In this document: positions 1-48,329 of the stretch, one piece after another
Layout: each line of letters begins with the position of its first letter
How positions within the stretch are numbered: position 1 is the first letter of the stretch
Assembly: GCA_964559915.1 (NCBI GenBank)
Contig: CAZLJP010000001.1
Span: 1,044-65,043 of the forward strand
Direction: 5' to 3'
Length of the DNA stretch: 64,000 bases
DNA from: an uncultured Candidatus Saccharibacteria bacterium
GTDB lineage: Bacteria > Patescibacteriota > Saccharimonadia > Saccharimonadales > JALRHH01
Program-made: the position numbers and the translations under genes
Notes under the pieces: model-generated
Database searches by the model: none
Seen by the model: the letters and a program-made list of their open reading frames with translations, nothing else
Told to the model about the DNA's origin: nothing

Positions 1-388
1 GCACGCCTACACTATTTTCCCTGGTTGTAGTCTCTGGTATATAACGGCTGGGTATACGGAGCTCTGCAATATCTTCTTCTGGAAGGCGACTGGCAGCAAA
101 ATTAATGGCTGCTCGTTTGATACCACGCTGGGCACGCATGGTTTGCCACCAATTAAAATGTTCGTTCCCCACCTCGTAAGTATTATTCAGTGATGTTAAT
201 TTCCAGCGAACATCCTTGTCTGGTAGTTCTAGGCAGCCCTCTAGGGCTGACACAGGATCAACATTCCCAGATGCTAATAATAGAGCTGTCTCTTGATACA
301 GCTCAGGTGCCTCTAACTGACTGAAGTCAGGATGTGCTCTGTGGGCTTCATTAACAAATGTCAGGTTGAAATCAGGGTTAAGTGTCAT
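1..388 (-). CDS. hypothetical protein, N-terminal part only (gene runs off window start)
   Basis: Hand translation of the minus strand from the ATG (complement of 386-388) gives MTLNPDFNLTFVNEAHRAHPDFSQLEAPELY... and stays open to position 1. It is absent from the ORF track because it is truncated. No motif recognised. Confidence 0.4.
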   Translation of the reverse strand, partial: MTLNPDFNLTFVNEAHRAHPDFSQLEAPELYQETALLLASGNVDPVSALEGCLELPDKDVRWKLTSLNNTYEVGNEHFNWWQTMRAQRGIKRAAINFAASRLPEEDIAELRIPSRYIPETTTRENSVGV

Positions 389-598
389 GGTTTGTTGCAG
401 GTGTTTGTTTTAAACTTACCTATTAGGATTTAAACACTAACATAATTGCTGTTCAAGAGATTTTATAAAAATTGCTAATACAGATGTAATAAAGTGCCAT
501 ATTATTCTGTCTGTGATATATCTAACACATATTTGCTATTTTCGTCATATAATGGTTTGCGGAATTAAAAATGTGGGGTATGATTGACAAGTTTGATT

Positions 599-1057
599 AT
601 GAGAGAAGATAGACAAGATAATCCGGACTTATTGTCGGATGAATCACAGATGGCCTTCGCATGGTCTCGCTACGAGAGCCTACGCGATTTAGGTCTGTTG
701 CCTGCTAAGATAGCAGTCGCAGGTATTAAACATGTAGTACACGCGCTTGAGCGCGACGTTCAAAGCCCAGAAGAACAGCTGACTGAGAAATATGAGGCAT
801 TTGAAGCGTTCATGGCAAGCAATGATGGCGAATACCGCTATCAGGCTGATTTTGATACGCACACCAAACAAGGTGCAACCATGTTCCAGGCATTTACTGA
901 AATGGTTAAAGAAATACACGAGATTGAAATTACCGAACCTGATGAAACTGACCTAGCTCAGATACCAATGCTCAACGGTCATCGCCTGGAAATTCACCGT
1001 CAGAACAGCGGAGGCTACTTCTTGATGGGCCACATCGAAGCACCCAATAATAATTAG
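599..1057 (+). CDS. hypothetical acidic protein (152 aa)
   Basis: Track ORF 584-1057 begins at TTG; the first ATG is at 599. No recognisable motif. Its TAG (1055-1057) overlaps the TAA (1054-1056) of the convergent gene. Confidence 0.45.
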   Translation: MREDRQDNPDLLSDESQMAFAWSRYESLRDLGLLPAKIAVAGIKHVVHALERDVQSPEEQLTEKYEAFEAFMASNDGEYRYQADFDTHTKQGATMFQAFTEMVKEIHEIEITEPDETDLAQIPMLNGHRLEIHRQNSGGYFLMGHIEAPNNN

Positions 1058-3378
1058 TCGTTACTAAGATTCTGTAACTTGTACTGGGTGTAGCGTTCAG
1101 CAGCTAGACGAGTTAGTTTGTCATCCTCACCCTTGTTCACAAATGCCATAGCTTCTGTCATTAGTGGATGTACTTCTGCTAATTTTTCGTGCATTTGTAG
1201 TACAAGTTTGCGGTAACCAGGATGTCCCTGGGGGCTGGTTCGGAGTTCGTGGAAATGAAATGCTTCACGGGCATTATATGTTAGCTTCCAGCGCATTTTG
1301 TGGCCCAGCAGGGTGGCGTACTGTGCTTCAAGCTCGTAGCCTTCTGCCTGCAAGTAACTATAGAGTTCTAGACTCAGGTCAAAACAGTTCTCGAAGGTTT
1401 CGGTGAGCCCAGCTTCCTCTACCAGTTCAGGTACTTCATAGCCATAGCGAGGTGTCAGTAGTTGCCAATTGAGATCATCTACCATACGGTGACGTTGTAA
1501 ATCACGAAAAATACCGTAGTCACACACCAAATCCCAGCTATAATGTGCTTTCTCTAGTGCCCTACCTGGACGGTGACGACGGTTAAGACGTTCGCCAATG
1601 TAGGTCTTAAAGATTTCTTCTTTTTTATCGTATGGGAGTTTCTCGGTAGCTTTCTTTAGCTCACTTAGTGATAGATTGCTGTGCTCATACAACATATCAG
1701 GTATCAATTCTAGTTCGTTGCGAGGCCATACGGCTGTCAAGGTAACTGGCTCATTCGCCTCTGTGTGCGCTGCAGGTAATAGCTCTGACGCTAGTTTTGC
1801 GACGGCGCGCTTGGTATTTGCACGGTATGCAATAGTCGCACCACCGCGCTCTGGTTTATCTGCGCGCTCGAGAAAGGTTGGGATGATAGTACGGGCGTGT
1901 TCAAGTAGCTTCTGCCCTGTAATGCGAGCCTCCGGTAGCTCATCGGCAAGGAGGTTCATAATAAGATTTTCGACTGCCTGTCCAGATGCATATATGCCGA
2001 CAGTTGATTTAGTAGATACCGGCAACACAGCCCGAATAGCATCACAGGCCTGTGCACGAGTGGCACCTTGCCAGGCTACATCTTGTTCGGCCTTAGGCAC
2101 ATCTGAGTTAGCACGAACATAATCAGTTAACTGACGTACCATTGACGAGTACTGGTCAAATATCTTGTCCATTACCTCGTTGTAGTGGGTTTTAACCTTT
2201 TTGTTGAAATGGTCTGGTGTGTAGTATTTATATTTGCCGTTTGTATCCTTCTGGTCGAAGTAGATATAGCGAGTTGATTGTTCCAGATATGCTGCTAGAC
2301 GCCCCCATTCAAGCTTTTTAGTAAGCAGATTAGAGGCGTTTTCTACTGTCAGATGCAAACCAACAAGTTGTTGCACCGAATCATCACCATAAGCCGTAAT
2401 AACGCGTTGGAGGAGCTTTTCGTCTTTACCCATGGCATGGGCAAACTCATCAAGCAATGTAATACGCATATCATCACCACGTCGTGACAAACGGGCCATA
2501 GCAGCTGCAATAGTAGTCGGACTCAGCTTGTCATTAAAGACGTATACATCGTCATCGACACTTGATACGGTGCTGCGCAAGAAGTCCTCTCCGGCAGCTG
2601 TTACGGTATAGCCAGTATCTGTTTTCGTAACATATGGGTTTTCAGTCACGACTGACTGTTTTATAGCAGTTTTCGTCTTTTCTGGAAGCAGCGGAGTGAT
2701 AGTTTTCCAGAGCATATCATGAACAGTATCAATAGACAGTAGTTTATCGCCACGTACGCAATCCAGTCTCTGGAAGTCTTTGGGGAATAAATCACACAGA
2801 TTGTCATAGACTTCTACAGAACGGCGCAGGTGGTTGATGTCTGCTTCATGAATATCACGCTTTTTATCCGTGTAACTACGTGCCTCTTTATTATCTACAA
2901 GCTGTTGAGCGGTCTCAGCTGGTACACGCAGAACGAATGACTTGTCAGGGCGTGGAATGCCTAACATCTGGAATTCTAGATTATCAAGCCATATAAAGTA
3001 ACCACGTCGTTCTTCGGCATGTTCAAACTTGGTACCTTGGTGGGCCATATTACTGCCGGTAAAACGATTTGCTAGTACAACCTTACCAGCTGCCAATGCT
3101 CCACGAATATCGGCAGCAGCTTGATACCGATCAAGTGCGTAGAATAACGACCCCGTATAGGGGCCGACTTCTTCGGCAGTACCATATTTGCCATTCAGAT
3201 ATTCGCGCACAAAATAGCTCGATGGCTGCTCGTATTGCGGAAAATCAAATGTTGCTACGTCATAGCCTTCGCTACGAAGCTTATCGGCTAATTTGGCAAA
3301 TTGGGTGCCCTTTCCGGACCCATCAGTACCTTCTATGACAAAGAATGCACCAGCGCGGTTTGCGGTCTCGGTGCTCAT
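1054..3378 (-). CDS. tmk: fusion protein: thymidylate kinase (N-terminal) + two tandem ThyX-like flavin-dependent thymidylate synthase domains
   Basis: 774 aa. Tmk P-loop FFVIEGTDGSGKGTQ near aa 12-26. ThyX-like signatures WGRLAAYLEQSTRY (aa 358-371) and DLQRHRMVDD...LLTPRY (aa 626-645), plus C-terminal NAREAFHFHELRTSPQGHPGYR. Confidence 0.8.
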   Translation of the reverse strand: MSTETANRAGAFFVIEGTDGSGKGTQFAKLADKLRSEGYDVATFDFPQYEQPSSYFVREYLNGKYGTAEEVGPYTGSLFYALDRYQAAADIRGALAAGKVVLANRFTGSNMAHQGTKFEHAEERRGYFIWLDNLEFQMLGIPRPDKSFVLRVPAETAQQLVDNKEARSYTDKKRDIHEADINHLRRSVEVYDNLCDLFPKDFQRLDCVRGDKLLSIDTVHDMLWKTITPLLPEKTKTAIKQSVVTENPYVTKTDTGYTVTAAGEDFLRSTVSSVDDDVYVFNDKLSPTTIAAAMARLSRRGDDMRITLLDEFAHAMGKDEKLLQRVITAYGDDSVQQLVGLHLTVENASNLLTKKLEWGRLAAYLEQSTRYIYFDQKDTNGKYKYYTPDHFNKKVKTHYNEVMDKIFDQYSSMVRQLTDYVRANSDVPKAEQDVAWQGATRAQACDAIRAVLPVSTKSTVGIYASGQAVENLIMNLLADELPEARITGQKLLEHARTIIPTFLERADKPERGGATIAYRANTKRAVAKLASELLPAAHTEANEPVTLTAVWPRNELELIPDMLYEHSNLSLSELKKATEKLPYDKKEEIFKTYIGERLNRRHRPGRALEKAHYSWDLVCDYGIFRDLQRHRMVDDLNWQLLTPRYGYEVPELVEEAGLTETFENCFDLSLELYSYLQAEGYELEAQYATLLGHKMRWKLTYNAREAFHFHELRTSPQGHPGYRKLVLQMHEKLAEVHPLMTEAMAFVNKGEDDKLTRLAAERYTQYKLQNLSND

Positions 3379-6403: not shown

Positions 6404-6679
6404 CTACACGCTATTTCCGTCAAAAGGGCCTATAGCCGTGTTATAGACTCCCAGCCATGCACAATAAGCGTCGTGATTGTAGGTTTCTAAGCTATGAGCC
6501 TCAATCATTTTGAGTTGAGCTACGCGAGCCATATCATGTTTTTCTAGAGCAGATAGTGCTATTTGTTCGGGACTAAGATGACCGTAGTGATAGGTAAGAC
6601 TTTCGTCGGTGCCTAGTATCTGGACGGGCACGGGCTGCTGATGTTCGCCACCCATATCTAGTTCGTGTATAACACTCAC
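6404..6679 (-). CDS. hypothetical protein (about 91 aa; track ORF extends to GTG 6730)
   Basis: GTG 6679 is preceded by GGGAG at 6-nt spacing. A TTGTGC-16-TATAGT promoter-like element (6705-6732) lies inside the longer track ORF, which favours the shorter start. Confidence 0.4.
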   Translation of the reverse strand: MSVIHELDMGGEHQQPVPVQILGTDESLTYHYGHLSPEQIALSALEKHDMARVAQLKMIEAHSLETYNHDAYCAWLGVYNTAIGPFDGNSV

Positions 6680-6740
6680 TGGATTCTCCCATTTATTTCC
6701 ACGTACTATACGCCGCTTAATCGTAAGCACAAGTACAAAT

Positions 6741-6766
6741 AAAAACAGCCCATTACTGGGCCGTTT
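6741..6766 (-). terminator. intrinsic terminator after nusG
   Basis: Minus-strand RNA CGGCCCA-GUAA-UGGGCUG followed by UUUUUAUUU. Confidence 0.7.
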
Positions 6767-6786
6767 ATATACCTTAAGCGATATAC

Positions 6787-7332
6787 TTAGACGCGTTTTA
6801 CCTGTAGGCTGTCGAGCTCTACTGGTGTTTCGCGGCCAAACATGTTGACCAGTACCTTGAGTTTACCCTTGGCTGGGTCGATTTCATTAATAGAACCGTC
6901 AAAGCCCTTAAATGGACCGTCAGTAATATTAACCACTTCTCCAACGTTGAAATCAATCTTGTGCTTAGGCTCTTCACGGCCCATACGCTTCATAATCTTT
7001 TCCATCTCATCAGCGTCAATTGGGCTTGGCTCTGAACCACTGCCTACAAAGCCGGTTACAGACGGGGTGTTACGCACGATATACCATGCATCTTCACTCA
7101 TTTTCATCTGTACCATAACGTAGCCTTGGAAGATTTTCTTCTCGACTACCTTACGCTTGCCGTTCTTAACCTCAATCATTTTTTCCTTGGGTACTAATAC
7201 CTGGAAGATTTGGGCCGCCATTTCGAGTGTCTCGGCGCGTTGGCGAATACTTTCTGCTACTTTTTCTTCATACCCACTATAGGTGTGAATGGCGTACCAT
7301 TGCTTGGTTGCGTCATATCTTTTAACACTCAT
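6787..7332 (-). CDS. nusG: transcription termination/antitermination factor NusG
   Basis: WYAIHTYSGYEEKV NGN domain and C-terminal KOW (GEVVNITDGPFKGFDGSINEI). Confidence 0.95.
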   Translation of the reverse strand: MSVKRYDATKQWYAIHTYSGYEEKVAESIRQRAETLEMAAQIFQVLVPKEKMIEVKNGKRKVVEKKIFQGYVMVQMKMSEDAWYIVRNTPSVTGFVGSGSEPSPIDADEMEKIMKRMGREEPKHKIDFNVGEVVNITDGPFKGFDGSINEIDPAKGKLKVLVNMFGRETPVELDSLQVKRV

Positions 7333-7408
7333 CCCGTTAGAAATTCCCTTCTTCTAAATGTAACTTATAGTTCATATCTGTCCTTCTCTCCCGTATATTT
7401 CTAACGGG
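7333..7408 (-). promoter_or_regulatory. 12-bp perfect inverted repeat enclosing the secE-nusG spacer, 3' arm ending at the nusG AUG
   Basis: cccgttagaaat (7333-7344) is the exact reverse complement of atttctaacggg (7397-7408), with a 52-nt loop. Confidence 0.55.
7337..7375 (-). CDS. putative 12-codon upstream ORF (MNYKLHLEEGNF) preceding nusG
   Basis: AAGGA lies 5 nt upstream of its AUG. Its UAA stop lies in the 3' arm of the stem, 4 nt before the nusG AUG, which has no well-spaced SD of its own. Confidence 0.3.
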   Translation of the reverse strand: MNYKLHLEEGNF

Positions 7409-7412
7409 GTTC

Positions 7413-7832
7413 TTAGTCAATAAACACTTTCTTAAATACTTTGTCGAGGCCGTAGTCGGTAATAGCGATAATTACGCCAAACACGAGAGAGAATACAAAC
7501 ACAGCTATGGTTAAACGAGTTGTTTCACGAGCTGTTGGCCACTGTACTTGTTTGAGTTCTTTCCATGCATCACGGAAAAACTTGAACAATAGAATCGATG
7601 CCAAAATCCTGCCAATACGGCGGACAAGCTTGGTCTTAAATGGCTTTAGCACAAATGCAAATGGCCGTGCGACCTTACCAATACCCTTGCCAACAATACG
7701 CACCGGCTTGGTTACAACACGTGCACCTTTCTTGAGACGATTGTTACCAGACTTTTCTATCGGGCCACGTTCGGCACGCTGTCTGACGGTTTCTACCTTT
7801 TTGAGCTGACGCTTTTTCTTGGCCTCTGCCAT
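7413..7832 (-). CDS. secE: preprotein translocase subunit SecE with basic N-terminal extension
   Basis: C-terminal WKELKQVQWPTARETTRLTIAVFVFSLVFGVIIAITDYGL is a typical SecE TM segment. Position upstream of nusG fits. Confidence 0.85.
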   Translation of the reverse strand: MAEAKKKRQLKKVETVRQRAERGPIEKSGNNRLKKGARVVTKPVRIVGKGIGKVARPFAFVLKPFKTKLVRRIGRILASILLFKFFRDAWKELKQVQWPTARETTRLTIAVFVFSLVFGVIIAITDYGLDKVFKKVFID

Positions 7833-7946
7833 TTCCTACTCCTGACCTTAAACCCAGATGGGTAATAAAAAAACCTACATAAAGCAGGTTCGTCAGCTGT
7901 CAATATAGCAGATTCGTTCGCATGCAGCAACCGAAACGTATATATT

Positions 7947-9446
7947 ATGCTTATGGTTCTTGCGATTTTGGGAGCAACACTACTATTAGAGCAATGTATG
8001 TACGCACGTTCATTATGGCGTTTTAGGTTGGCTTTCGTAGCGCTGCTGACTCTAACCATATCACTCACAAGCTCACAAGTGCTCATCAGCCATCCAAATT
8101 GGCTTGGAATACTGGCAGTTGCTTTGTCTATTGCCAGGTTGCTCAATCTCTTTAGGATTGCCCAGGCTCGCATGCATACCGATTACCTCAGGCTAGCTAC
8201 TCGTTATAGTAGCCGTGTCTTGGTTGTGGCACAGACGTTGGCGCTGCTGGCCCTGGCTGGGCTTATCCCTGTACATCTGCATATCGCTAATTTGCCGCTA
8301 CTCACTGCTGTTTTACAAGCCGTTGTAGCAATAGCAGTGTTAGCTGTTACGATTCGCGACATCTATAAGACCAGGTATCTGCAAGGTACTACATTCTATG
8401 CTGACCGAGAATTACCAACCGTGTCTTTGTTGATACCGGCTCGCAACGAAACATATGATTTAGAAGAGTGCTTGCGCAGCGCACTGGCTAGTGATTACCC
8501 CAAGCTTGAAATCATTGTATTGGATGATTGTAGCCAGGCTAGGACATCCGAAGTCATCAAAGGCTTTGCCCACGACGGAGTACGCTTTGTTCAGGGCGAG
8601 CCGCCTGCAGACCGTTGGCTGGCCAAGAATCAGGCGTATCAAAAGCTTTCTGACGAGGCTAGTGGTGAGCTGTTACTATTTTGTGGCGTGGATGTACGGT
8701 TTGGCCCACATGCTATTAAGGCATTGGTCACGGAGCTACTACGCCGTGATAAACAAATGGTCAGTATCCTGCCACATCGCCTGAGCGGCAGTGCTGCCGG
8801 AGCATTTATCCAACCAATGCGCTATTGGTGGGAACTGGCCTTGCCACGCAAGCTCGTTAACCGTCCAGCTGTACTCAGCACCTGCTGGTTAATCCGTCGC
8901 AAGACACTTCATAAACTAGGTGATTTCAAGGCCGTGAGTCATTCTATTATTCCAGAAGGCTTCTTTGCCCGTGAGTTGGTAAAAACCAATGATTACAGCT
9001 TTATTCGTGCCAACGACACACTGGATATCCAAACGCGCAAATCATATAAAGAACAACGTGCTACCGCTATTCGTACACGCTATCCACAGCTGCGCCGTAG
9101 ACCTGAGAATGTGTTTGTTGTAACAGTACTAGAATTATTGTTCTTATTTGGGCCGTTTGTCGGCTTGGTATTTGGCCTTTTAACGGATGACATGGCTGTT
9201 GTCGTAGCCAGTCTTACTGCCTCTTTACTATTGGTCATCAATCACATTATTATCGTGCAGCTGACCAGCCCAGCCAATGTTATTATTGCCGTATTTAATC
9301 TGCCTATAGAGGTCTTGACAGAGGTGGTAATAGCGCTTGTATCAATGGTACGCTACGAATTTGGCACCGTGGAATGGAAAGACCGAAACGTCTGCATCCC
9401 GGTCATGCATGTGATTCCAAGACTTCCCGATTTGCCAAAACAATAA
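7947..9446 (+). CDS. membrane-embedded family 2 glycosyltransferase
   Basis: N- and C-terminal TM bundles flank a GT2 core: SLLIPARNETYDLEECL, LEIIVLDDCS, FCGVDVRF. Confidence 0.8.
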   Translation: MLMVLAILGATLLLEQCMYARSLWRFRLAFVALLTLTISLTSSQVLISHPNWLGILAVALSIARLLNLFRIAQARMHTDYLRLATRYSSRVLVVAQTLALLALAGLIPVHLHIANLPLLTAVLQAVVAIAVLAVTIRDIYKTRYLQGTTFYADRELPTVSLLIPARNETYDLEECLRSALASDYPKLEIIVLDDCSQARTSEVIKGFAHDGVRFVQGEPPADRWLAKNQAYQKLSDEASGELLLFCGVDVRFGPHAIKALVTELLRRDKQMVSILPHRLSGSAAGAFIQPMRYWWELALPRKLVNRPAVLSTCWLIRRKTLHKLGDFKAVSHSIIPEGFFARELVKTNDYSFIRANDTLDIQTRKSYKEQRATAIRTRYPQLRRRPENVFVVTVLELLFLFGPFVGLVFGLLTDDMAVVVASLTASLLLVINHIIIVQLTSPANVIIAVFNLPIEVLTEVVIALVSMVRYEFGTVEWKDRNVCIPVMHVIPRLPDLPKQ

Positions 9447-9463
9447 GATATGTTCTATTATTC

Positions 9464-9964
9464 ATGTCTATGAATATGGATGAGAGCTACATCACAAGTA
9501 AGGTAACTACTTCACACGAATATTTTTTAAATGTACCTAGTAATGGTGTTGATGAACGAGTCCCTTTAGGCTCCAGGACAGATAGCCTAACGGTATACCC
9601 TGATAGTGCAGAAGATCTGCCGTTGACAGGCAACCAGTTAGAACAAGCCCTCGGTACGCTTGCAGATAGCTACCTTGAGAGTCAGCTTGCTAGCAGAAGG
9701 TTTGTTGCTTTAAGACGCGGGGTTTCGGCTGCAGCGATTGCAGCAGCGGGAGTGACAACATACGAAGGTGTTTCAAATGACAGTGCAGGTATCTTTATTA
9801 CAGGGGCTGGACTGGGCATTGCCGGGCTAGCATTTGCAATTCGTGGAGAGAGAACAATAGATACAGAAAAGCGTGTCAGGAGTCACGAATCAGGGCTCTA
9901 TAGAAAGCAAGTTTTAGCTCTAACTAGTCTTATAGCACAGAAAAAAACACAAAATCAGCTTTAA
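9464..9964 (+). CDS. hypothetical membrane protein
   Basis: First ATG downstream of the GT2 stop. Two Gly/Ala-rich TM segments (VSAAAIAAAGVTT, IFITGAGLGIAGLAFAI). Its stop abuts the stop of the convergent kinase gene (TAATTA). Confidence 0.45.
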   Translation: MSMNMDESYITSKVTTSHEYFLNVPSNGVDERVPLGSRTDSLTVYPDSAEDLPLTGNQLEQALGTLADSYLESQLASRRFVALRRGVSAAAIAAAGVTTYEGVSNDSAGIFITGAGLGIAGLAFAIRGERTIDTEKRVRSHESGLYRKQVLALTSLIAQKKTQNQL

Positions 9965-11071
9965 TTAGCTCAGGTTCGGAATAAAGATAGAGAACGTGGA
10001 GCCTTTGTTGAGTTCGCTGTTGAGCTCTATTTCGGCATGAATGAGACGTGTGAGCTTCATAGTGACATATAGTCCCAGACCAGTACCAGTGTTCTGGCGG
10101 GTTCGGTAATCTTCGCTTCTCCAGAACTTATCAAAGACCCGTTCTTGATCAGCCTTGCTCAGCCCAATACCCGTATCAGTAATCGTAAATAACACGCCAC
10201 CTTCACGATGCGTAGCGCCAATAGAGACATGGCCTTCCTCTGTATATTTGATGGCGTTAGTTATAAAGTTCTGCAGTATCTCACGTACATAGAGACGGGC
10301 AGATTTGAGCAGTTCTAAGTGTGGGTCGGTTTCTGTCAGTAGCTGTAGCCCCTTTGCCTCGGCATCAGGCGCATAGAGCTTGCCCAGCTCGTCTATAAGC
10401 TCATGAGCGTTGATATCCTCAACATCCACGGCTAACTTGCCACGCTCGGCCCTAGACAGTGTAGACAAATCATTAATCATGCCGCTGAGGAAGTTTACTT
10501 GATTATGTGCCTGGCCAAGTGCTTCTTTGATGTGTGTCGTATCACCGCTCTTCTCTAAGATGAATTCTGCATTGCCAATATTACCCTCGGCAATAGCAAT
10601 CGGTGTGCGCAGCTCGTGGCTGACCACACTAATAAACTCGTCTCGCTCTTCTTCTAGCGACTTTTCATGAGTGATGTCACGCAGCAACACCACATAACCA
10701 TGCATCCCCTCGTGGCCGTAACTCAGCTTAACTGGAGCAATACTCAGATAAAGGTTTACAAGACTACCATCAGGATACTGCAGGCGCCAATCGCGAGAAG
10801 TCATTTGTGTTTTGGTGGCCAGAATCTCGTTCTTGAGCTGTATTGGCTGATTATTCTTATCTACTAGTTTGACCACATTGGCGATTGGTTTGCCCGTTAC
10901 TGTGCTGTTGAGGTCCAAGATATTCAGTGCGGCACCGTTGTACAACACGATATGAGTTTTTTCATCTATAGCAATCACACCATCAGCCATGCTGTTGATG
11001 AGACTATTTAGACGCTCACGTTCAACGTCGGCGTTATGGGCATCGGTTACAGATGGTTTTTTAGTCGGCAT
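9965..11071 (-). CDS. cytoplasmic PAS-domain sensor histidine kinase
   Basis: H-box SHELRTPI, N-box NAIKYT, G-boxes DTGIGL and GTGLGL. No TM segment. No response regulator in the window. Confidence 0.85.
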   Translation of the reverse strand: MPTKKPSVTDAHNADVERERLNSLINSMADGVIAIDEKTHIVLYNGAALNILDLNSTVTGKPIANVVKLVDKNNQPIQLKNEILATKTQMTSRDWRLQYPDGSLVNLYLSIAPVKLSYGHEGMHGYVVLLRDITHEKSLEEERDEFISVVSHELRTPIAIAEGNIGNAEFILEKSGDTTHIKEALGQAHNQVNFLSGMINDLSTLSRAERGKLAVDVEDINAHELIDELGKLYAPDAEAKGLQLLTETDPHLELLKSARLYVREILQNFITNAIKYTEEGHVSIGATHREGGVLFTITDTGIGLSKADQERVFDKFWRSEDYRTRQNTGTGLGLYVTMKLTRLIHAEIELNSELNKGSTFSIFIPNLS

Positions 11072-41515: not shown

Positions 41516-41776
41516 TTATGCGCCGAATTGTGCCAAACGAGTAATCATCCCGCCAATACTGCGCGATTTGTCCAGCGGCTGGTGATTACGCGACGCAATC
41601 AACCGTCGGCCAATCGCATCAGCCGCTTCAACCAAATCCTCGAGTGGTTGCCACGATTCACGTACACCATCGGGGGTGATAAGATGCCTGACAATATTCA
41701 TGTTGGCGGCTCTGAACTCTTCAAGCAGGCCTGTTTGTGGTTCTTCTGGTTGGGTTGGTTGTTCGCTAAATTCCAT
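41516..41776 (-). CDS. hypothetical protein (86 aa), second gene of the fusA|tuf insert
   Basis: ATG 41776 is preceded by GGAGGAGG (the track ORF starts further upstream). Acidic Pro/Glu-rich N-terminus. Confidence 0.45.
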   Translation of the reverse strand: MEFSEQPTQPEEPQTGLLEEFRAANMNIVRHLITPDGVRESWQPLEDLVEAADAIGRRLIASRNHQPLDKSRSIGGMITRLAQFGA

Positions 41777-41789
41777 ACTATGCCTCCTC

Positions 41790-42080
41790 CTAGGCGGCTG
41801 TTTTTGTTTCTGGTGACAATGACAATATAAGCGCGCGGTGAAATACCTCAAGCTCTCTGGCTTTTGCTAAAAGTTCTGATTCTGTGGCGCCGGCTTCGGC
41901 AGCCACGTCATAAGCAATATATTTATCTGTTAAGCAAGAAATAAGCACTTCGCGGCCAAGTATCCGGGATAAGCCACGTGCACCTTGGGCTTCGTCAGCA
42001 TCCAACTCAATATGGTGGTCATGGCCATAGCCGTGCGCGTCTTCCCATTGTTGATGTGAATAGATAGCTTCAGCGTTCAT
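41790..42080 (-). CDS. hypothetical protein (96 aa, His-rich N-terminus), first gene of the fusA|tuf insert
   Basis: HGYGHDHHIELD stretch. The ATG lies 6 nt after a TTGAAA-17-TATTAC promoter (42087-42115), so the transcript would be leaderless. Confidence 0.45.
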   Translation of the reverse strand: MNAEAIYSHQQWEDAHGYGHDHHIELDADEAQGARGLSRILGREVLISCLTDKYIAYDVAAEAGATESELLAKARELEVFHRALILSLSPETKTAA

Positions 42081-45253: not shown

Positions 45254-45282
45254 ATTGTAACAGATACGGGTTATTTAATCAA
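45254..45282 (-). promoter_or_regulatory. promoter TTGATT-17-TACAAT for rpsL-rpsG-fusA
   Basis: -35 at 45277-45282 and -10 at 45254-45259 (minus strand). Confidence 0.55.
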
Positions 45283-45322: not shown

Positions 45323-45604
45323 TCAGATTTGGTCTTCTATTCTGTCAGCTGGTTCTGGTTCATCACAGTTTATTTCGGTGCAGGTAGTCTGTATATCCAA
45401 AGCTTGATTCGTATCTGCCTGGGATGTGTTGTTTTGATACACGCTATAGCCGACAAATCCGGTCACACCGATTGTCAACATAACGAACAATAGAAGCCCG
45501 AAATGAACGATGCCTGCCTGATTATCAAAAAGGCAGGCAAATTGGGTCTTATGTGTGGGTTTTATTCTGCCGTTATTATAGCTCACTGGTTGGTCCTTCA
45601 TCAT
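45323..45604 (-). CDS. small anchored/secreted acidic protein P3 (about 93 aa) with shared N-terminal motif
   Basis: DNQAGIVHFGLLLFVMLTIGVTGFVGYSVYQ, then an acidic tail with TTCTEINCDEPEP. The first track codon is TTG; the first ATG is at 45604. Confidence 0.55.
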   Translation of the reverse strand: MMKDQPVSYNNGRIKPTHKTQFACLFDNQAGIVHFGLLLFVMLTIGVTGFVGYSVYQNNTSQADTNQALDIQTTCTEINCDEPEPADRIEDQI

Positions 45605-45836
45605 CAATTACATCTGCATCCGCGCGAGAGTCTGAATCTTGACACTCATCAGGTAGTGGTTCCTCTTCCGTACAGCCGCTGGCCTGCTTAACTTCATCAA
45701 TCGTCAAGCCACTGGGAGTACTATTGTGTCTGTACACGCTGTAGCCAACCAGGCCCACTAAACCGATTGCTATCACTATCAATAGTATGAGTGTGATATG
45801 TGCGATTCCTGATTGGTTAGATTTTAGTTGTGTCAT
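45576..45836 (-). CDS. small anchored/secreted acidic protein P2 (86 aa) with shared N-terminal motif
   Basis: SNQSGIAHITLILLIVIAIGLVGLVGYSVYR, then SGCTEEEPLPDECQD. AGGAAA SD upstream. Confidence 0.6.
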   Translation of the reverse strand: MTQLKSNQSGIAHITLILLIVIAIGLVGLVGYSVYRHNSTPSGLTIDEVKQASGCTEEEPLPDECQDSDSRADADVIDDEGPTSEL

Positions 45837-45844
45837 TAATTTTC

Positions 45845-48187
45845 CTATAAACCATTTATGTTACAGATATGGAAACCGGCTTTCTTTCCATCTTTGCGTC
45901 CTGGGAACTCCCACTCCAGTTCATGACCATTGTATGTCCCTTTGCAGGCACTACTTGTTCTCAGTTTTGCGCAATACTTACCGCTTGTATATGCTGCTGT
46001 TGAATTTGCTATACCACACTTACTGCCAACGTCTGAACTTGAACCCTTGTCGTCATCTTTCTTATCGTCTTTTGACTTACAGATGCTCCAGTTATGATCT
46101 TTTTCACTGCTTAACATTAGACTTGATGGTGAACAGCCGCCACATCGACCATTACCCCCGCCATCAAAGTAATGAGTTCTTTTTAGCTTCTTACAGAAGC
46201 TAGGGCTTACACTTGATGTGTTCTTGCCGTCATCACCTTTTACTATCACTCGGCATTGTCGCCAGCCTTTGTATTCACCGCTGGTGATTGTTCGCCAATA
46301 CTCATAGTTCTTTAGGCATTTAGGCGCGCACTTTTTGGTCTTATCGTTCCAAACACGCTTTAGATAACCTTCACAGCCAGCCTTTTCTTTAGGCCCAGTG
46401 TCAGGATTATTGCCATAATATGTATATTTACAGATACCTGCCGGCGTAATTGTGGTGCCACTTATCGTCTTCAAAATTGATGGTGTACTGAGATAAAGAC
46501 CGACGCCTGCCTTTTTAGGAGGACACGCTTTGTTTGGATCTGTATTTGTATTCTTTGGACATTGATAATAGTAGGTATTTACTTTATTAAGATACTGGCT
46601 GCATGCAATTGTTTCGCCGGTGGACTTATTATTTTTACAAACCCTTATTTTGTATGACTTCCCGTCCGTTGCGAAGCTGTAATTATTAAGGGTAGTTGTG
46701 TTCTTGGGACATTCATCCTTACCAAGTGTATCGCTATCCGGACAGACATAGCCTCTCTCTTTTAGGAATGAAGCGACTTCCCTACATCTAAATCCATCTT
46801 GTATGACTTTTTCACCTTTGTATTTTTTAGCATTAAGGCATAGGTCATAAGTATATTTCTTTTTATCTTTAGTGCTCACAAACGTAAACTTCGGCAGATA
46901 CAGGTCTTTTGATAGGTTAGTGTTCCTCTCTGCTGCATAATCAAGGCATGCGTATCTCTCGTCAGTAGATTTTGCACAAGCATATTTTCCGGATACAATG
47001 CCGGCTTTTTCGGCGGCCGTACAGCTCATGGTACCCTTTTCTGGACCACTCGCCGATGGCTGGGGGGTTGACCCTTCGGCGTAACATTTCTTATTAACCC
47101 CGCCTACTATGGCGAAACCGGGATTTGATGCTGTCCAGCCCTTACCCAACTTACATTGAGTCCAACTAGATACACATTTATCGAGCGCGCCATTAGCGTA
47201 GTTCGTAAGAAACTTAGACGTGTTCTGACATACACGCTGACATCCATCCTTATAGACACGGCCTACATCAGCACTAGTACACTTCTTCTGGTCTACGTTT
47301 GCGCCAACATTACCCCTGACACATCTGTGTTGAGTAGTGCCTCCGACAACCTTACCGCCAGGGCATTTGTCCTTTGTAACACACCCATTGTTGCCATTGG
47401 GGTTGTCGGTAAGATAATACTGGACATCTTCATAGCCGCAATCATCGAGACATGCTCCACTTGATTTGTTGTATGCTTGGTGCGGCATACTACATTTATT
47501 GCCCGAGGAAGACCCATTGTCAGAAGAATTATCTGAATCATTAGAAGATTGGTTTGATTCATCGTCTGAAGGCGAGCTAGCTGAGTTTCCTGAGCTAGAA
47601 TTACCATTATCTGAACTTGATGAGTCTTCAGAATCCCCGGTGTCAGACCTCTCGTCGAGGTTAACAATAACCCCAGAATCATTGTTGCTAGGATTTTCGT
47701 TTACGGTACTACCCGTGACTTTCTTGTTGTCGTCAGTTACCTTATTGTCATTTTTGGTAACGTAGTTTAGCTTTTTGCTCAACAGGCTTGAGACGCGGGT
47801 CTTTGCATCATCGGTTGTATAAAACGAATCACCGAACAACTTATTGAATTGTGCTTCATTAATCGTGCCGTCATCACTCACGAGCCCATTCAGCTGCTCA
47901 TCACTGAGCCCATCAACCTTTGCTTTGAAATCAGCTTCGGATATCTTGAGGGCTTGGCCATTCTTTAGTCCCGGTGCTAAGTCCTTGAGCTGATCTTTGA
48001 TAATCTTACTATCCAGGTCATTGAGCTGAGCAGAGTTTGACTGAGGCTTGTGGAATACTGAATAGCTGGCGATGCCGATAATACCAACAACGAATACCAC
48101 TGCTAGGACAAGACCTAGGTGGGCGATGCCAGATTGATTGGTACGGATGTTTGCTGATTTTTTGCTTAAGCCAAAGAGTTTGCGCAT
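45845..48187 (-). CDS. large Cys-rich surface/secreted protein P1 (780 aa) with shared N-terminal motif
   Basis: TNQSGIAHLGLVLAVVFVVGIIGIASYSVF anchor, a charged region, a Ser/Asp/Asn low-complexity linker, then about 550 aa carrying 36 Cys (hand count). AT-rich. Confidence 0.7.
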   Translation of the reverse strand: MRKLFGLSKKSANIRTNQSGIAHLGLVLAVVFVVGIIGIASYSVFHKPQSNSAQLNDLDSKIIKDQLKDLAPGLKNGQALKISEADFKAKVDGLSDEQLNGLVSDDGTINEAQFNKLFGDSFYTTDDAKTRVSSLLSKKLNYVTKNDNKVTDDNKKVTGSTVNENPSNNDSGVIVNLDERSDTGDSEDSSSSDNGNSSSGNSASSPSDDESNQSSNDSDNSSDNGSSSGNKCSMPHQAYNKSSGACLDDCGYEDVQYYLTDNPNGNNGCVTKDKCPGGKVVGGTTQHRCVRGNVGANVDQKKCTSADVGRVYKDGCQRVCQNTSKFLTNYANGALDKCVSSWTQCKLGKGWTASNPGFAIVGGVNKKCYAEGSTPQPSASGPEKGTMSCTAAEKAGIVSGKYACAKSTDERYACLDYAAERNTNLSKDLYLPKFTFVSTKDKKKYTYDLCLNAKKYKGEKVIQDGFRCREVASFLKERGYVCPDSDTLGKDECPKNTTTLNNYSFATDGKSYKIRVCKNNKSTGETIACSQYLNKVNTYYYQCPKNTNTDPNKACPPKKAGVGLYLSTPSILKTISGTTITPAGICKYTYYGNNPDTGPKEKAGCEGYLKRVWNDKTKKCAPKCLKNYEYWRTITSGEYKGWRQCRVIVKGDDGKNTSSVSPSFCKKLKRTHYFDGGGNGRCGGCSPSSLMLSSEKDHNWSICKSKDDKKDDDKGSSSDVGSKCGIANSTAAYTSGKYCAKLRTSSACKGTYNGHELEWEFPGRKDGKKAGFHICNINGL

Positions 48188-48228
48188 GTGTTATATGTGT
48201 TTCTTATTCTAAAGATATCTTAAGCATT

Positions 48229-48257
48229 ACTGTATTGCTTATGCTACATAATGTCAA
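48229..48257 (-). promoter_or_regulatory. promoter TTGACA-17-TACAGT for the P1-P2-P3 operon
   Basis: -35 at 48252-48257 and -10 at 48229-48234 (minus strand), just downstream of the rpoC terminator. Confidence 0.6.
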
Positions 48258-48280
48258 CGATTGGCTACAGTCTAGGGAAA

Positions 48281-48311
48281 CAAAAACCCGGTGCAGGAAC
48301 ACCGGGTTTTG
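48281..48311. terminator. bidirectional terminator after rpoC
   Basis: ACCCGGTG (48286-48293) / CACCGGGT (48300-48307) with flanking A- and T-runs. Confidence 0.8.
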
Positions 48312-48329
48312 TTGCACGTTAGCTTTACT

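Follow-up and report, generated by a model that had tools for sequence, protein, structure and literature searches.

What are three open reading frames (ORFs) doing between rpoC and rpsL, and what does the N-terminal motif that all of them carry stand for? These questions are raised by a window of 64,000 nucleotides, the whole stretch of DNA analysed in this study, from an uncultured Candidatus Saccharibacteria bacterium. The window is otherwise a core housekeeping region that holds rpoBC, the str, S10, spc and alpha operons and the genes for SecY, tRNA synthetases, trigger factor, ClpP and RecG. The three ORFs, named P1, P2 and P3, lie on the minus strand. We propose, with a probability of roughly 0.45 and from sequence evidence only, that P1-P3 are extracytoplasmic proteins that owe their targeting and anchoring to a divergent type IV prepilin-like (class III) signal, one that occurs commonly in bacteria of the candidate phyla radiation (CPR)/Saccharibacteria type.

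The motif NQ[SA]GI[AV]H, followed after 18 residues by YSV[FY], is common to P1, P2 and P3. The sequence-only reading of this DNA had claimed such a shared signature, and it proved specific to the three proteins within the window: a six-frame search with NQ[SA]G[IV][AV]H gave exactly three matches in the 64 kb, all of them in P1-P3, and a degenerate DNA pattern of the whole motif gave three matches in the window vs 0 in 100 shuffles. In P1, the motif and its hydrophobic helix (NQSG/IAHLGLVLAVVFVVGIIGIASYSVF, where the slash stands after the Gly) occupy 48050..48139 on the minus strand, as located by the regular expression and the DNA pattern, and match a local family hidden Markov model (HMM) at E = 5e-15; the corresponding values are 8e-18 for P2 and 2e-15 for P3. 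Each protein has one hydrophobic segment (KD19 2.2-2.8). The leader, counted up to and including the Gly, comprises 20 residues in P1 (five K/R before the motif), 10 in P2 and about 24-31 in P3.

A motif search for other carriers, which the sequence-only reading had put forward as a check, revealed a large family. The motif profile was run exhaustively against 1.84 billion representatives clustered at 50% identity, and 418 cluster representatives were found at E <= 0.001. A word-indexed search with the motif had returned 3 proteins and missed known members, so that the exhaustive HMM search was needed. Moreover, a relaxed DNA pattern identified 83 metagenome loci, nearly all of which were protein N-termini of the motif type. 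The motif is therefore a family-wide feature and not a peculiarity of the P1-P3 operon. A strict DNA pattern with the fixed 18-residue spacing had a single match in 185,579 species genomes, in a Candidatus Saccharibacteria metagenome-assembled genome (L006), and none in the JGI metagenomes; these sparse matches reflect a narrow, close subfamily, not the absence of the family. As far as the data show, the motif is restricted to CPR/Saccharibacteria-type sequences, which agrees with the lineage-specific nature first suggested for it. No Pfam or NCBIfam model describes the motif in P1-P3 or in the 150 listed matches that were scanned, cluster look-ups of the relatives returned "hypothetical protein" only, and the literal motif strings had no match in a literature text search. 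The motif is the tag of a large family that HMM libraries do not model.

In all 150 listed of the 418 representatives, the match starts at residue 1-39 and falls within the first ~80 residues, and the Gly is present in every one. The lengths of the carriers are bimodal, at 60-100 aa and 200-300 aa. A consensus anchored on the Gly and built from 149 family members reads M-K-[LI]-K-[KN]-N-Q-S-G/[IFV]-A-H-[LIV]-[GA]-L, and is continued by a hydrophobic run with G15, G18 and G21, then by Y/W-x-V-Y/W-x-N-N, and then by a polar low-complexity stretch. In the same 149 members the leader has 7-12 residues with a mean of 2.2 K+R and 0.3 D+E, and position +1 is I in 74, F in 47 and V in 22; the leaders upstream of the motif are 5-47 residues long and variable in sequence. 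The uncharged run after the Gly has a median of 22 residues, and His+3 is found in 218/223 of the distinct carriers from which residues were counted. The cargo that can be recognised on other carriers consists of PsbP_2 (11), PepSY (3), Peptidase_M23 (2), CHAP and metallopeptidases, the M23 and CHAP domains being those of peptidoglycan hydrolases; all of this cargo is extracytoplasmic. Carriers are often found in tandem, with four each in L003 and L004 and more than one in L052, L062, L034/L041 and L026/L073.

The sequence-only reading had stated that the motif could not be assigned to any known sorting signal. In our analysis it can be: the available evidence places it among the class III (type IV prepilin) signals as a divergent member, an assignment based on an in-register profile-profile match and on intermediates that carry Glu+5. 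The conserved site precedes the hydrophobic run, comes after a short and variable basic leader, and has at its centre an invariant Gly, after which comes Phe, Ile or Val; this is the layout of a class III signal. The class III features found are a basic leader ending in Gly-1 and a hydrophobic residue at +1 followed by about 20 hydrophobic residues. For the profile-profile test, all members with Glu+5 were removed from the motif profile, and 11 canonical prepilin N-termini served as the target. The two profiles aligned Gly on Gly with an hhalign score of 20.1 (P 5.8e-5), whereas 150 column shuffles gave a mean of 6.8 and a maximum of 14.1. Scores of 12.3 and 6.1 were obtained with the reversed alignment and with a small set of Sec signal peptides, respectively.

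The intermediates come from within the family itself. Glu+5 occurs in 9/223 distinct carriers, all of which have Phe+1 (e.g. NQKG/FAHLE, QSG/FSHVE and QSG/FGALE), and seven of these combine the A/S-H (or G-A) of the family at +2/+3 with Glu+5 and Phe+1. The other two of the nine, both found by the local family HMM, are fully canonical (G/FTAVE and G/FTAIE); in L018 and L046, they adjoin ordinary carriers or lie ~1.3 kb away. These two score 28.6 and 20.6 bits with N_methyl (cut-off 21.2 bits), and the L046 protein also passes TIGR02532. Furthermore, the seven combined carriers gave in-register matches to N_methyl, TIGR02532, PRK10506/PRK10574, GspG/H/J, PilV and ComGC, all of them below threshold at only 10.8-15.5 bits. 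Gly-1 is the main determinant of cleavage by prepilin peptidase, and Glu+5 serves assembly, not cleavage. We describe the tag as a Glu-less, His-bearing derivative of the prepilin signal that was previously unmodelled. PilD and type IV pili are reported to be widespread in CPR bacteria (PMC6744442). Separately, one locus (L013, 331-2149, minus strand) contains a carrier followed on the same strand by two canonical prepilin genes, KRG/FTLIE and KRG/FSLVE; nowhere else is a carrier so clearly part of a pilin gene cluster.

In the mechanism that we propose, the precursors would first be inserted in a Sec-dependent manner, with the short basic leader (6-28 residues in P1-P3) ending in the invariant Gly. 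Cleavage after this Gly, which is probable in P1-P3, would then be carried out on the cytoplasmic side of the membrane by an enzyme of the prepilin peptidase type. The new N-terminus, [I/F/V]-A-H-[L/I], would head a hydrophobic helix of ~21 residues with G15/G18/G21 and a Tyr/Trp belt, which would either keep the protein in the membrane or permit its entry into a pilus-like assembly. Because Glu+5, the residue of pilin polymerisation, is replaced and an almost invariant His+3 is gained, the processed proteins would be expected to be displayed as anchored or tip-type subunits, and not as bulk filament subunits. P1 would then be a modular protein in which the signal is followed by a charged stalk, a Ser/Asp/Asn linker and a disulfide-rich orphan domain projecting as a binding module. 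P2 and P3 would be minimal versions, consisting of the helix and an acidic, disulfide-looped tail; they are translationally coupled to P1 and are its probable partners. The block would be expressed from its own promoter between the rpoC terminator and rpsL. CPR genomes are reported to be enriched in thiol-disulfide oxidoreductases (PMC6744442), which would suit a 36-Cys ectodomain. The cleavage after Gly, the enzyme, the surface display and the role in attachment are steps that we infer, and for P1 a part in host attachment is suggested only by its architecture.

Several observations weigh against this proposal. Residue +5 is G in P1, T in P2 and G in P3, and 214/223 carriers are without Glu+5. 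N_methyl (PF07963) and TIGR02532 gave no match to P1-P3 even at E <= 1, and both are absent from the family lists of the 150 listed carriers. The hydrophobic helix is followed by Pro/Gly and low-complexity sequence (+26 to +39) in place of an amphipathic alpha1C and a globular pilin domain, which argues that P1-P3 are not classical pilins; the AlphaFold2 model that bears on the alpha1 and pilin-domain question covers the Cys-rich domain of P1 only (pLDDT 36.9). The scan of window ORFs gave no prepilin peptidase and no component of a type IV pilus machine, and such genes (PilB, PilC, PilM, PilD) were likewise absent from the recurrent Pfam families of 205 carrier neighbours, where Sortase (5) and ComEC (3) ranked highest; nor was a co-occurring dedicated peptidase found in the sequence available. 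In addition, 8 of the 11 canonical N-termini of the profile test were written out by hand rather than drawn from sequence records. The sequence-only reading had seen the prepilin-like layout without Glu+5 or the G-x4-EY of Flp pilins, and this description was borne out; curated sorting-signal models do not match. The data hence do not support P1-P3 as canonical pilins; their signal is akin to those of prepilins and may function in a similar way.

Other known classes were also considered and rejected. Flp/Tad pilins were ruled out by the missing Glu-Tyr at +5/+6 and by an Flp1_like match of only E 0.022 and 14.7 bits vs the 33.5-bit cut-off. Bacterial lipoproteins were ruled out, as the hydrophobic segment and its surroundings are free of Cys in P1 and P2 and the only early Cys of P3 lies in its leader. 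Sortase (LPXTG) substrates were ruled out, since 0/160 carriers of at least 150 aa have a C-terminal hydrophobic segment and no sorting signal was seen. As a separate observation, sortase genes lie near or next to carriers in five loci (L044 7906-8556, L084 421-1089, L010 2947-3615, L055 4169-4954 and L057 5483-6079). In these loci, LPNTG/LAETG substrates are found near the sortases, and the carriers are without a C-terminal sorting signal; such loci may be cell-surface gene islands. A jackhmmer search started from a neighbouring sortase reached carriers through similarity of transmembrane segments, and this result was discarded, the sortases being without the motif.

The strongest alternative, which we regard as possible but not probable, is that the pilin-like N-terminus has become an uncleaved N-in/C-out signal-anchor, that the motif is kept for insertion, lateral sorting or partner binding, and that P1-P3 are type II membrane proteins. 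The long hydrophobic run (median 22) edged by Tyr/Trp and Lys/Arg resembles a stable anchor, and a flexible linker comes directly after the helix. Moreover, M23/CHAP hydrolases of monoderm bacteria are often simply membrane-anchored, and the missing Glu+5, together with neighbourhoods that show no link to pilus machinery, would be natural for such an anchor. However, a plain anchor leaves unexplained why the invariant Gly, the His+3 (218/223) and the Asn-Gln at -3/-2 are retained across hundreds of unrelated proteins, and the free variation of the leader in both length (5-47) and sequence is that of a peptide to be discarded.

A cleavable Sec signal processed by signal peptidase I, with an N-region motif of the YSIRK/GS or KxYKxGKxW kind, is an improbable explanation. 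According to it, 30-35 residues would be removed, and P2 and P3 would be released as acidic disulfide peptides of ~50 residues. A leader plus ~21 hydrophobic residues does fall within the range of Gram-positive signal peptides, and the helix-breaking Gly residues at +15, +18 and +21 are close to where the hydrophobic run ends; a gene for an S26 signal peptidase ~0.9 kb from the carrier array of one locus (L004) and the recurrence of sortase genes near carriers could be taken in the same sense. Yet, in what is a weak test of this explanation, no conserved small-x-small site is found past the hydrophobic run, where the conserved feature is instead G-[YW]-x-V-[YW]. The motif profile also scores far lower against the small Sec signal peptide set than against the prepilin N-termini (6.1 vs 20.1), and a C-terminal LPXTG or membrane segment is absent from the carriers of at least 150 aa, which argues against their being sortase substrates.

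The L004 locus has features of its own. Three paralogous carriers of 184, 224 and 224 aa, which have the variant helix AHLLYPILG, stand in tandem at 6507-8739 on the plus strand, the S26 signal peptidase gene is at 9616-10290 on the opposite (minus) strand, downstream of the array, and PIN and antitoxin genes are interspersed. In addition, there is a subfamily of long carriers (ORFs of 500-880 aa in L012, L015, L023, L028, L034, L041, L063, L067 and L079) in which the helix is shorter and a conserved Q-x-[IF]-F-[KR]-P-[KR]-A comes after it; this element may be a second processing site. Two or three of these long carriers stand in tandem in L034 and in L041.

With regard to the proteins themselves, P1 (780 aa; 45845..48187, minus strand) consists of a basic leader (residues 1-16), the NQSG motif with the helix (17-46), a charged region (47-185), a low-complexity Ser/Asp/Asn/Gly linker (186-231; 47495..47632, minus strand), recognised by its composition and with an equivalent in the homologue P0002, and a Cys-rich domain (232-780; 45848..47494, minus strand), which was delimited by its Cys positions and is predicted to be extracytoplasmic. 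P0002 shares 48.7% identity with P1 and occupies the equivalent genomic position. As the sequence-only reading had counted, P1 has 36 Cys and none before the linker; the first is residue 232, directly past the linker, and this distribution fits an oxidising extracytoplasmic location. Four C-x13-C-x3-C-x18-C modules are found at 232-269, 303-338, 605-645 and 665-703; their first Cys is often followed by [KG]-R-[VIT]-[WY], and P0002 keeps all four modules. A self-BLAST of the Cys domain gave no repeats, and the modules are visible from the Cys spacing only. The domain had no Pfam or NCBIfam match and, in a profile search of the PDB, 0 matches at E <= 10. Homologue searches with full-length P1 and with the Cys domain alone each returned only P1 and P0002, and a third, partial relative was found in L092, where a P1-like C-terminus is followed by a P2-like gene. 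These searches leave the Cys-rich domain as an orphan whose two relatives are P0002 and the fragment in L092. Structure prediction of this region, which had been suggested at the outset, was carried out, and the resulting AlphaFold2 model was too poor for use (pLDDT 36.9, pTM 0.22). That the ectodomain binds a ligand is a guess from its architecture.

P2 (86 aa; 45576..45836, minus strand) comprises a six-residue leader, NQSG/IAH, a hydrophobic helix and an acidic tail, with 15 D+E vs 4 K+R and a C-x10-C element (CTEEEPLPDEC). P3 (87 aa from the GTG at 45586; 45323..45586, minus strand) has a long leader, NQAG/IVH, a helix and an acidic tail with CTEINC, one further Cys in the leader, and 10 D+E vs 4 K+R. 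The earlier description of both proteins as short and acidic with a paired-Cys CTE element is thus accurate. The ORF of P3 reaches back to a TTG at 45607 (45607-45323, 94 aa). The GTG at 45586 is the more likely start, because an AAGGA Shine-Dalgarno sequence lies 7 nt upstream and the 87-aa protein was also called in independent assemblies of this sequence (Logan contigs). In L091, a contig of 922 bases from an assembly of the same population, no gene was called between P2 and the next gene, where P3 would be expected; this may reflect strain variation or an effect of assembly or gene calling.

The block is retained in a relative, L003, in which rpoC is followed by proteins of 354, 758, 83 and 72 aa and then by rpsL, and the motif is present in 4/4 of the inserted proteins. 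Compared with L003, the window has 99.3% identity in S12 and 91.5% in the C-terminus of RpoC, whereas P1, P2 and P3 are 48.7%, 52.6% and 47.0% identical to their counterparts; in the Cys-rich domain, 33/36 Cys of P1 align with Cys in P0002. The idea that the rpoC-rpsL spacer has expanded and that P1-P3 are chance frames or decaying remnants within it, for which the lack of a strong Shine-Dalgarno sequence before P1, the lower GC and the lack of annotated homologues could be cited, can hardly be entertained and is effectively refuted by conservation, since in L003 the proteins retain their frames, lengths, order and motif at 47-53% identity, with those 33 aligned Cys, a third relative exists in L092, and the family has hundreds of members. 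P1-P3 are, on this comparison, real genes under fast divergence. About 50% identity in the block vs 92-99% in its flanks is the pattern expected of host-contact or antigenic proteins, and divergence so much faster than that of the flanks makes P1 a reasonable candidate adhesin. Moreover, in L087 a 216-aa carrier (36-686, plus strand) lies directly upstream of tuf (794-1975), whose EF-Tu is 87% identical to that of the window, which indicates that carriers recur in the spacers of core str/rpo operons.

The order on the minus strand is rpoC, terminator, promoter, P1, P2, P3, rpsL, rpsG and fusA, with rpoB at 55563-52147, rpoC at 52172-48330 and rpsL at 45170-44757 (all minus strand, from the ORF list). 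The intrinsic terminator of rpoC (48279..48313, minus strand) is formed by the hairpin CCCGGUG-loop-CACCGGG followed by UUUUUGUUU; its RNA fold has -22.4 kcal/mol and a z of -3.8, and 0/200 shuffles were as good. A putative sigma-70-like promoter for P1-P2-P3, TTGACA-17-TACAGT (48229..48257, minus strand), was located by a consensus scan with 10/12 matches. Promoter-like sites are not enriched in the region (4 found vs 6.5 expected), and a consensus match by itself is weak evidence for a P1 promoter. In L003, however, rpoC is likewise followed by a terminator and then by TTGACA-17-TATAGT at the equivalent position, although the spacer between rpoC and P1 is otherwise diverged and only 42 nt align to the window. 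Mainly because of this conservation within a diverged spacer, we infer that the promoter is real and serves P1-P2-P3. The separation of rpoC and rpsL by a terminator, this promoter and three co-directional ORFs, as set out in the sequence-only reading, was therefore confirmed, with terminator, promoter and block all kept in L003. The gap between P1 and P2 is 8 nt and, if read from its GTG, P3 shares 11 nt with P2, a spacing consistent with a single P1-P2-P3 transcript. The downstream limit of the block is marked by a TG-extended promoter-like site found by scanning 5' of rpsL (TTGATT-17-TACAAT; 45254..45282, minus strand). No terminator-like site was seen in the P3-rpsL gap, so that read-through into rpsL is possible. 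The GC of the block is mostly 0.39-0.44 vs 0.48-0.51 in rpoC and rpsL-fusA, in keeping with the higher AT content reported at first. No Rfam family was found within the block, and a mobile element was ruled out, there being no flanking direct or inverted repeats.

Further features were observed elsewhere in the window. Two overlapping ORFs (111 and 96 aa; 41516-42080, minus strand) between fusA and tuf have no Pfam match and form a second unexplained insertion inside the str operon; neither has the NQ[SA]G motif. The S5 gene is directly followed by that of L15 without an L30 gene (29315-30441, minus strand), an order that is typical of CPR bacteria and fits a CPR origin of the window. An ORF of 774 aa (1054-3378, minus strand) contains a thymidylate kinase domain and a ThyX (Thy1) domain that matches in two stretches, and appears to be a fused enzyme for the synthesis and phosphorylation of dTMP. 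The ORF for ribosomal protein L1 (4487-5464, minus strand) gives 325 aa from a GTG, which is longer than a typical L1; either the protein has an N-terminal extension or its true start lies further downstream.

Bacteria of the CPR/Saccharibacteria type live in attachment to other microbes, and annotation is lacking for most of their surface proteins. The signature described here would allow hundreds of "hypothetical" proteins to be classed as exported surface proteins of the pilin-signal type. For pilus biology, a natural variant that retains the Gly on which cleavage depends, has lost the Glu+5 required for assembly and has acquired an invariant His is informative. The interest of the finding is moderate, and would be higher if cleavage and a display pathway were confirmed. 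A bolder proposal, which we consider unlikely and offer as speculation, is that NQ[SK]G/[IFV]AH marks a surface-display pathway specific to CPR bacteria, which would be the bacterial equivalent of the bindosome of archaea. In such a pathway, hundreds of cargos other than pilins (hydrolases, binding domains and adhesins) would be processed by prepilin peptidase or by a paralogue dedicated to them. A helix interaction dependent on His+3 but not on Glu+5 would then keep these cargos on the cell surface or assemble them there, and the rpoC-rpsL block, P1 with its partners P2 and P3, would be a fast-evolving host-contact module beside the core expression operons.

Among known systems, the closest is the type IV prepilin signal (N_methyl PF07963, TIGR02532; [KRQ]-G/F-[TS]-L-[IL]-E), which is alike in its basic leader, Gly-1, Phe/Ile/Val at +1 and ~20 hydrophobic residues; the leader end NQKG/F of the carriers also resembles the LQKG/F of classical pilins. 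Unlike prepilins, however, the carriers have A-H at +2/+3 in place of [TS]-L, Gly/Ala/Leu in place of Glu+5 in 96%, and G15-G18-G21 with the Tyr/Trp belt in place of the Pro22/alpha1C continuation. Modular pilins have been described in Streptococcus sanguinis, where PilB and PilC have a large C-terminal module thought to bind ligands (PMC8179133), and in Saccharibacteria, where PilX1 and PilX2 are large minor pilins and PilX2 was reported to have a non-canonical signal peptide (PMC11623550). P1 shares with these proteins the layout of a pilin-type N-terminus and a large C-terminal module, but it has no recognisable globular pilin domain, lies outside a pilus locus, and its module is an orphan Cys-rich domain. 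In the bindosome of Sulfolobus, sugar-binding proteins, which are not pilins, carry class III signals, are processed by PibD and are displayed at the cell surface. The carriers likewise combine a prepilin-type signal with varied non-filament cargo (enzymes, PsbP-like and PepSY proteins), and P2 matches BasC weakly, at E 8e-4 and far below the cut-off (19 vs 260 bits); they differ in being bacterial, in having another consensus and in that no assembly system was identified. Finally, the YSIRK/GS and KxYKxGKxW signals have no sequence similarity to the motif, are removed by signal peptidase I and usually belong to proteins that end in LPXTG, but they offer the same picture of a lineage-restricted motif placed at the start of the hydrophobic core on many unrelated surface proteins.

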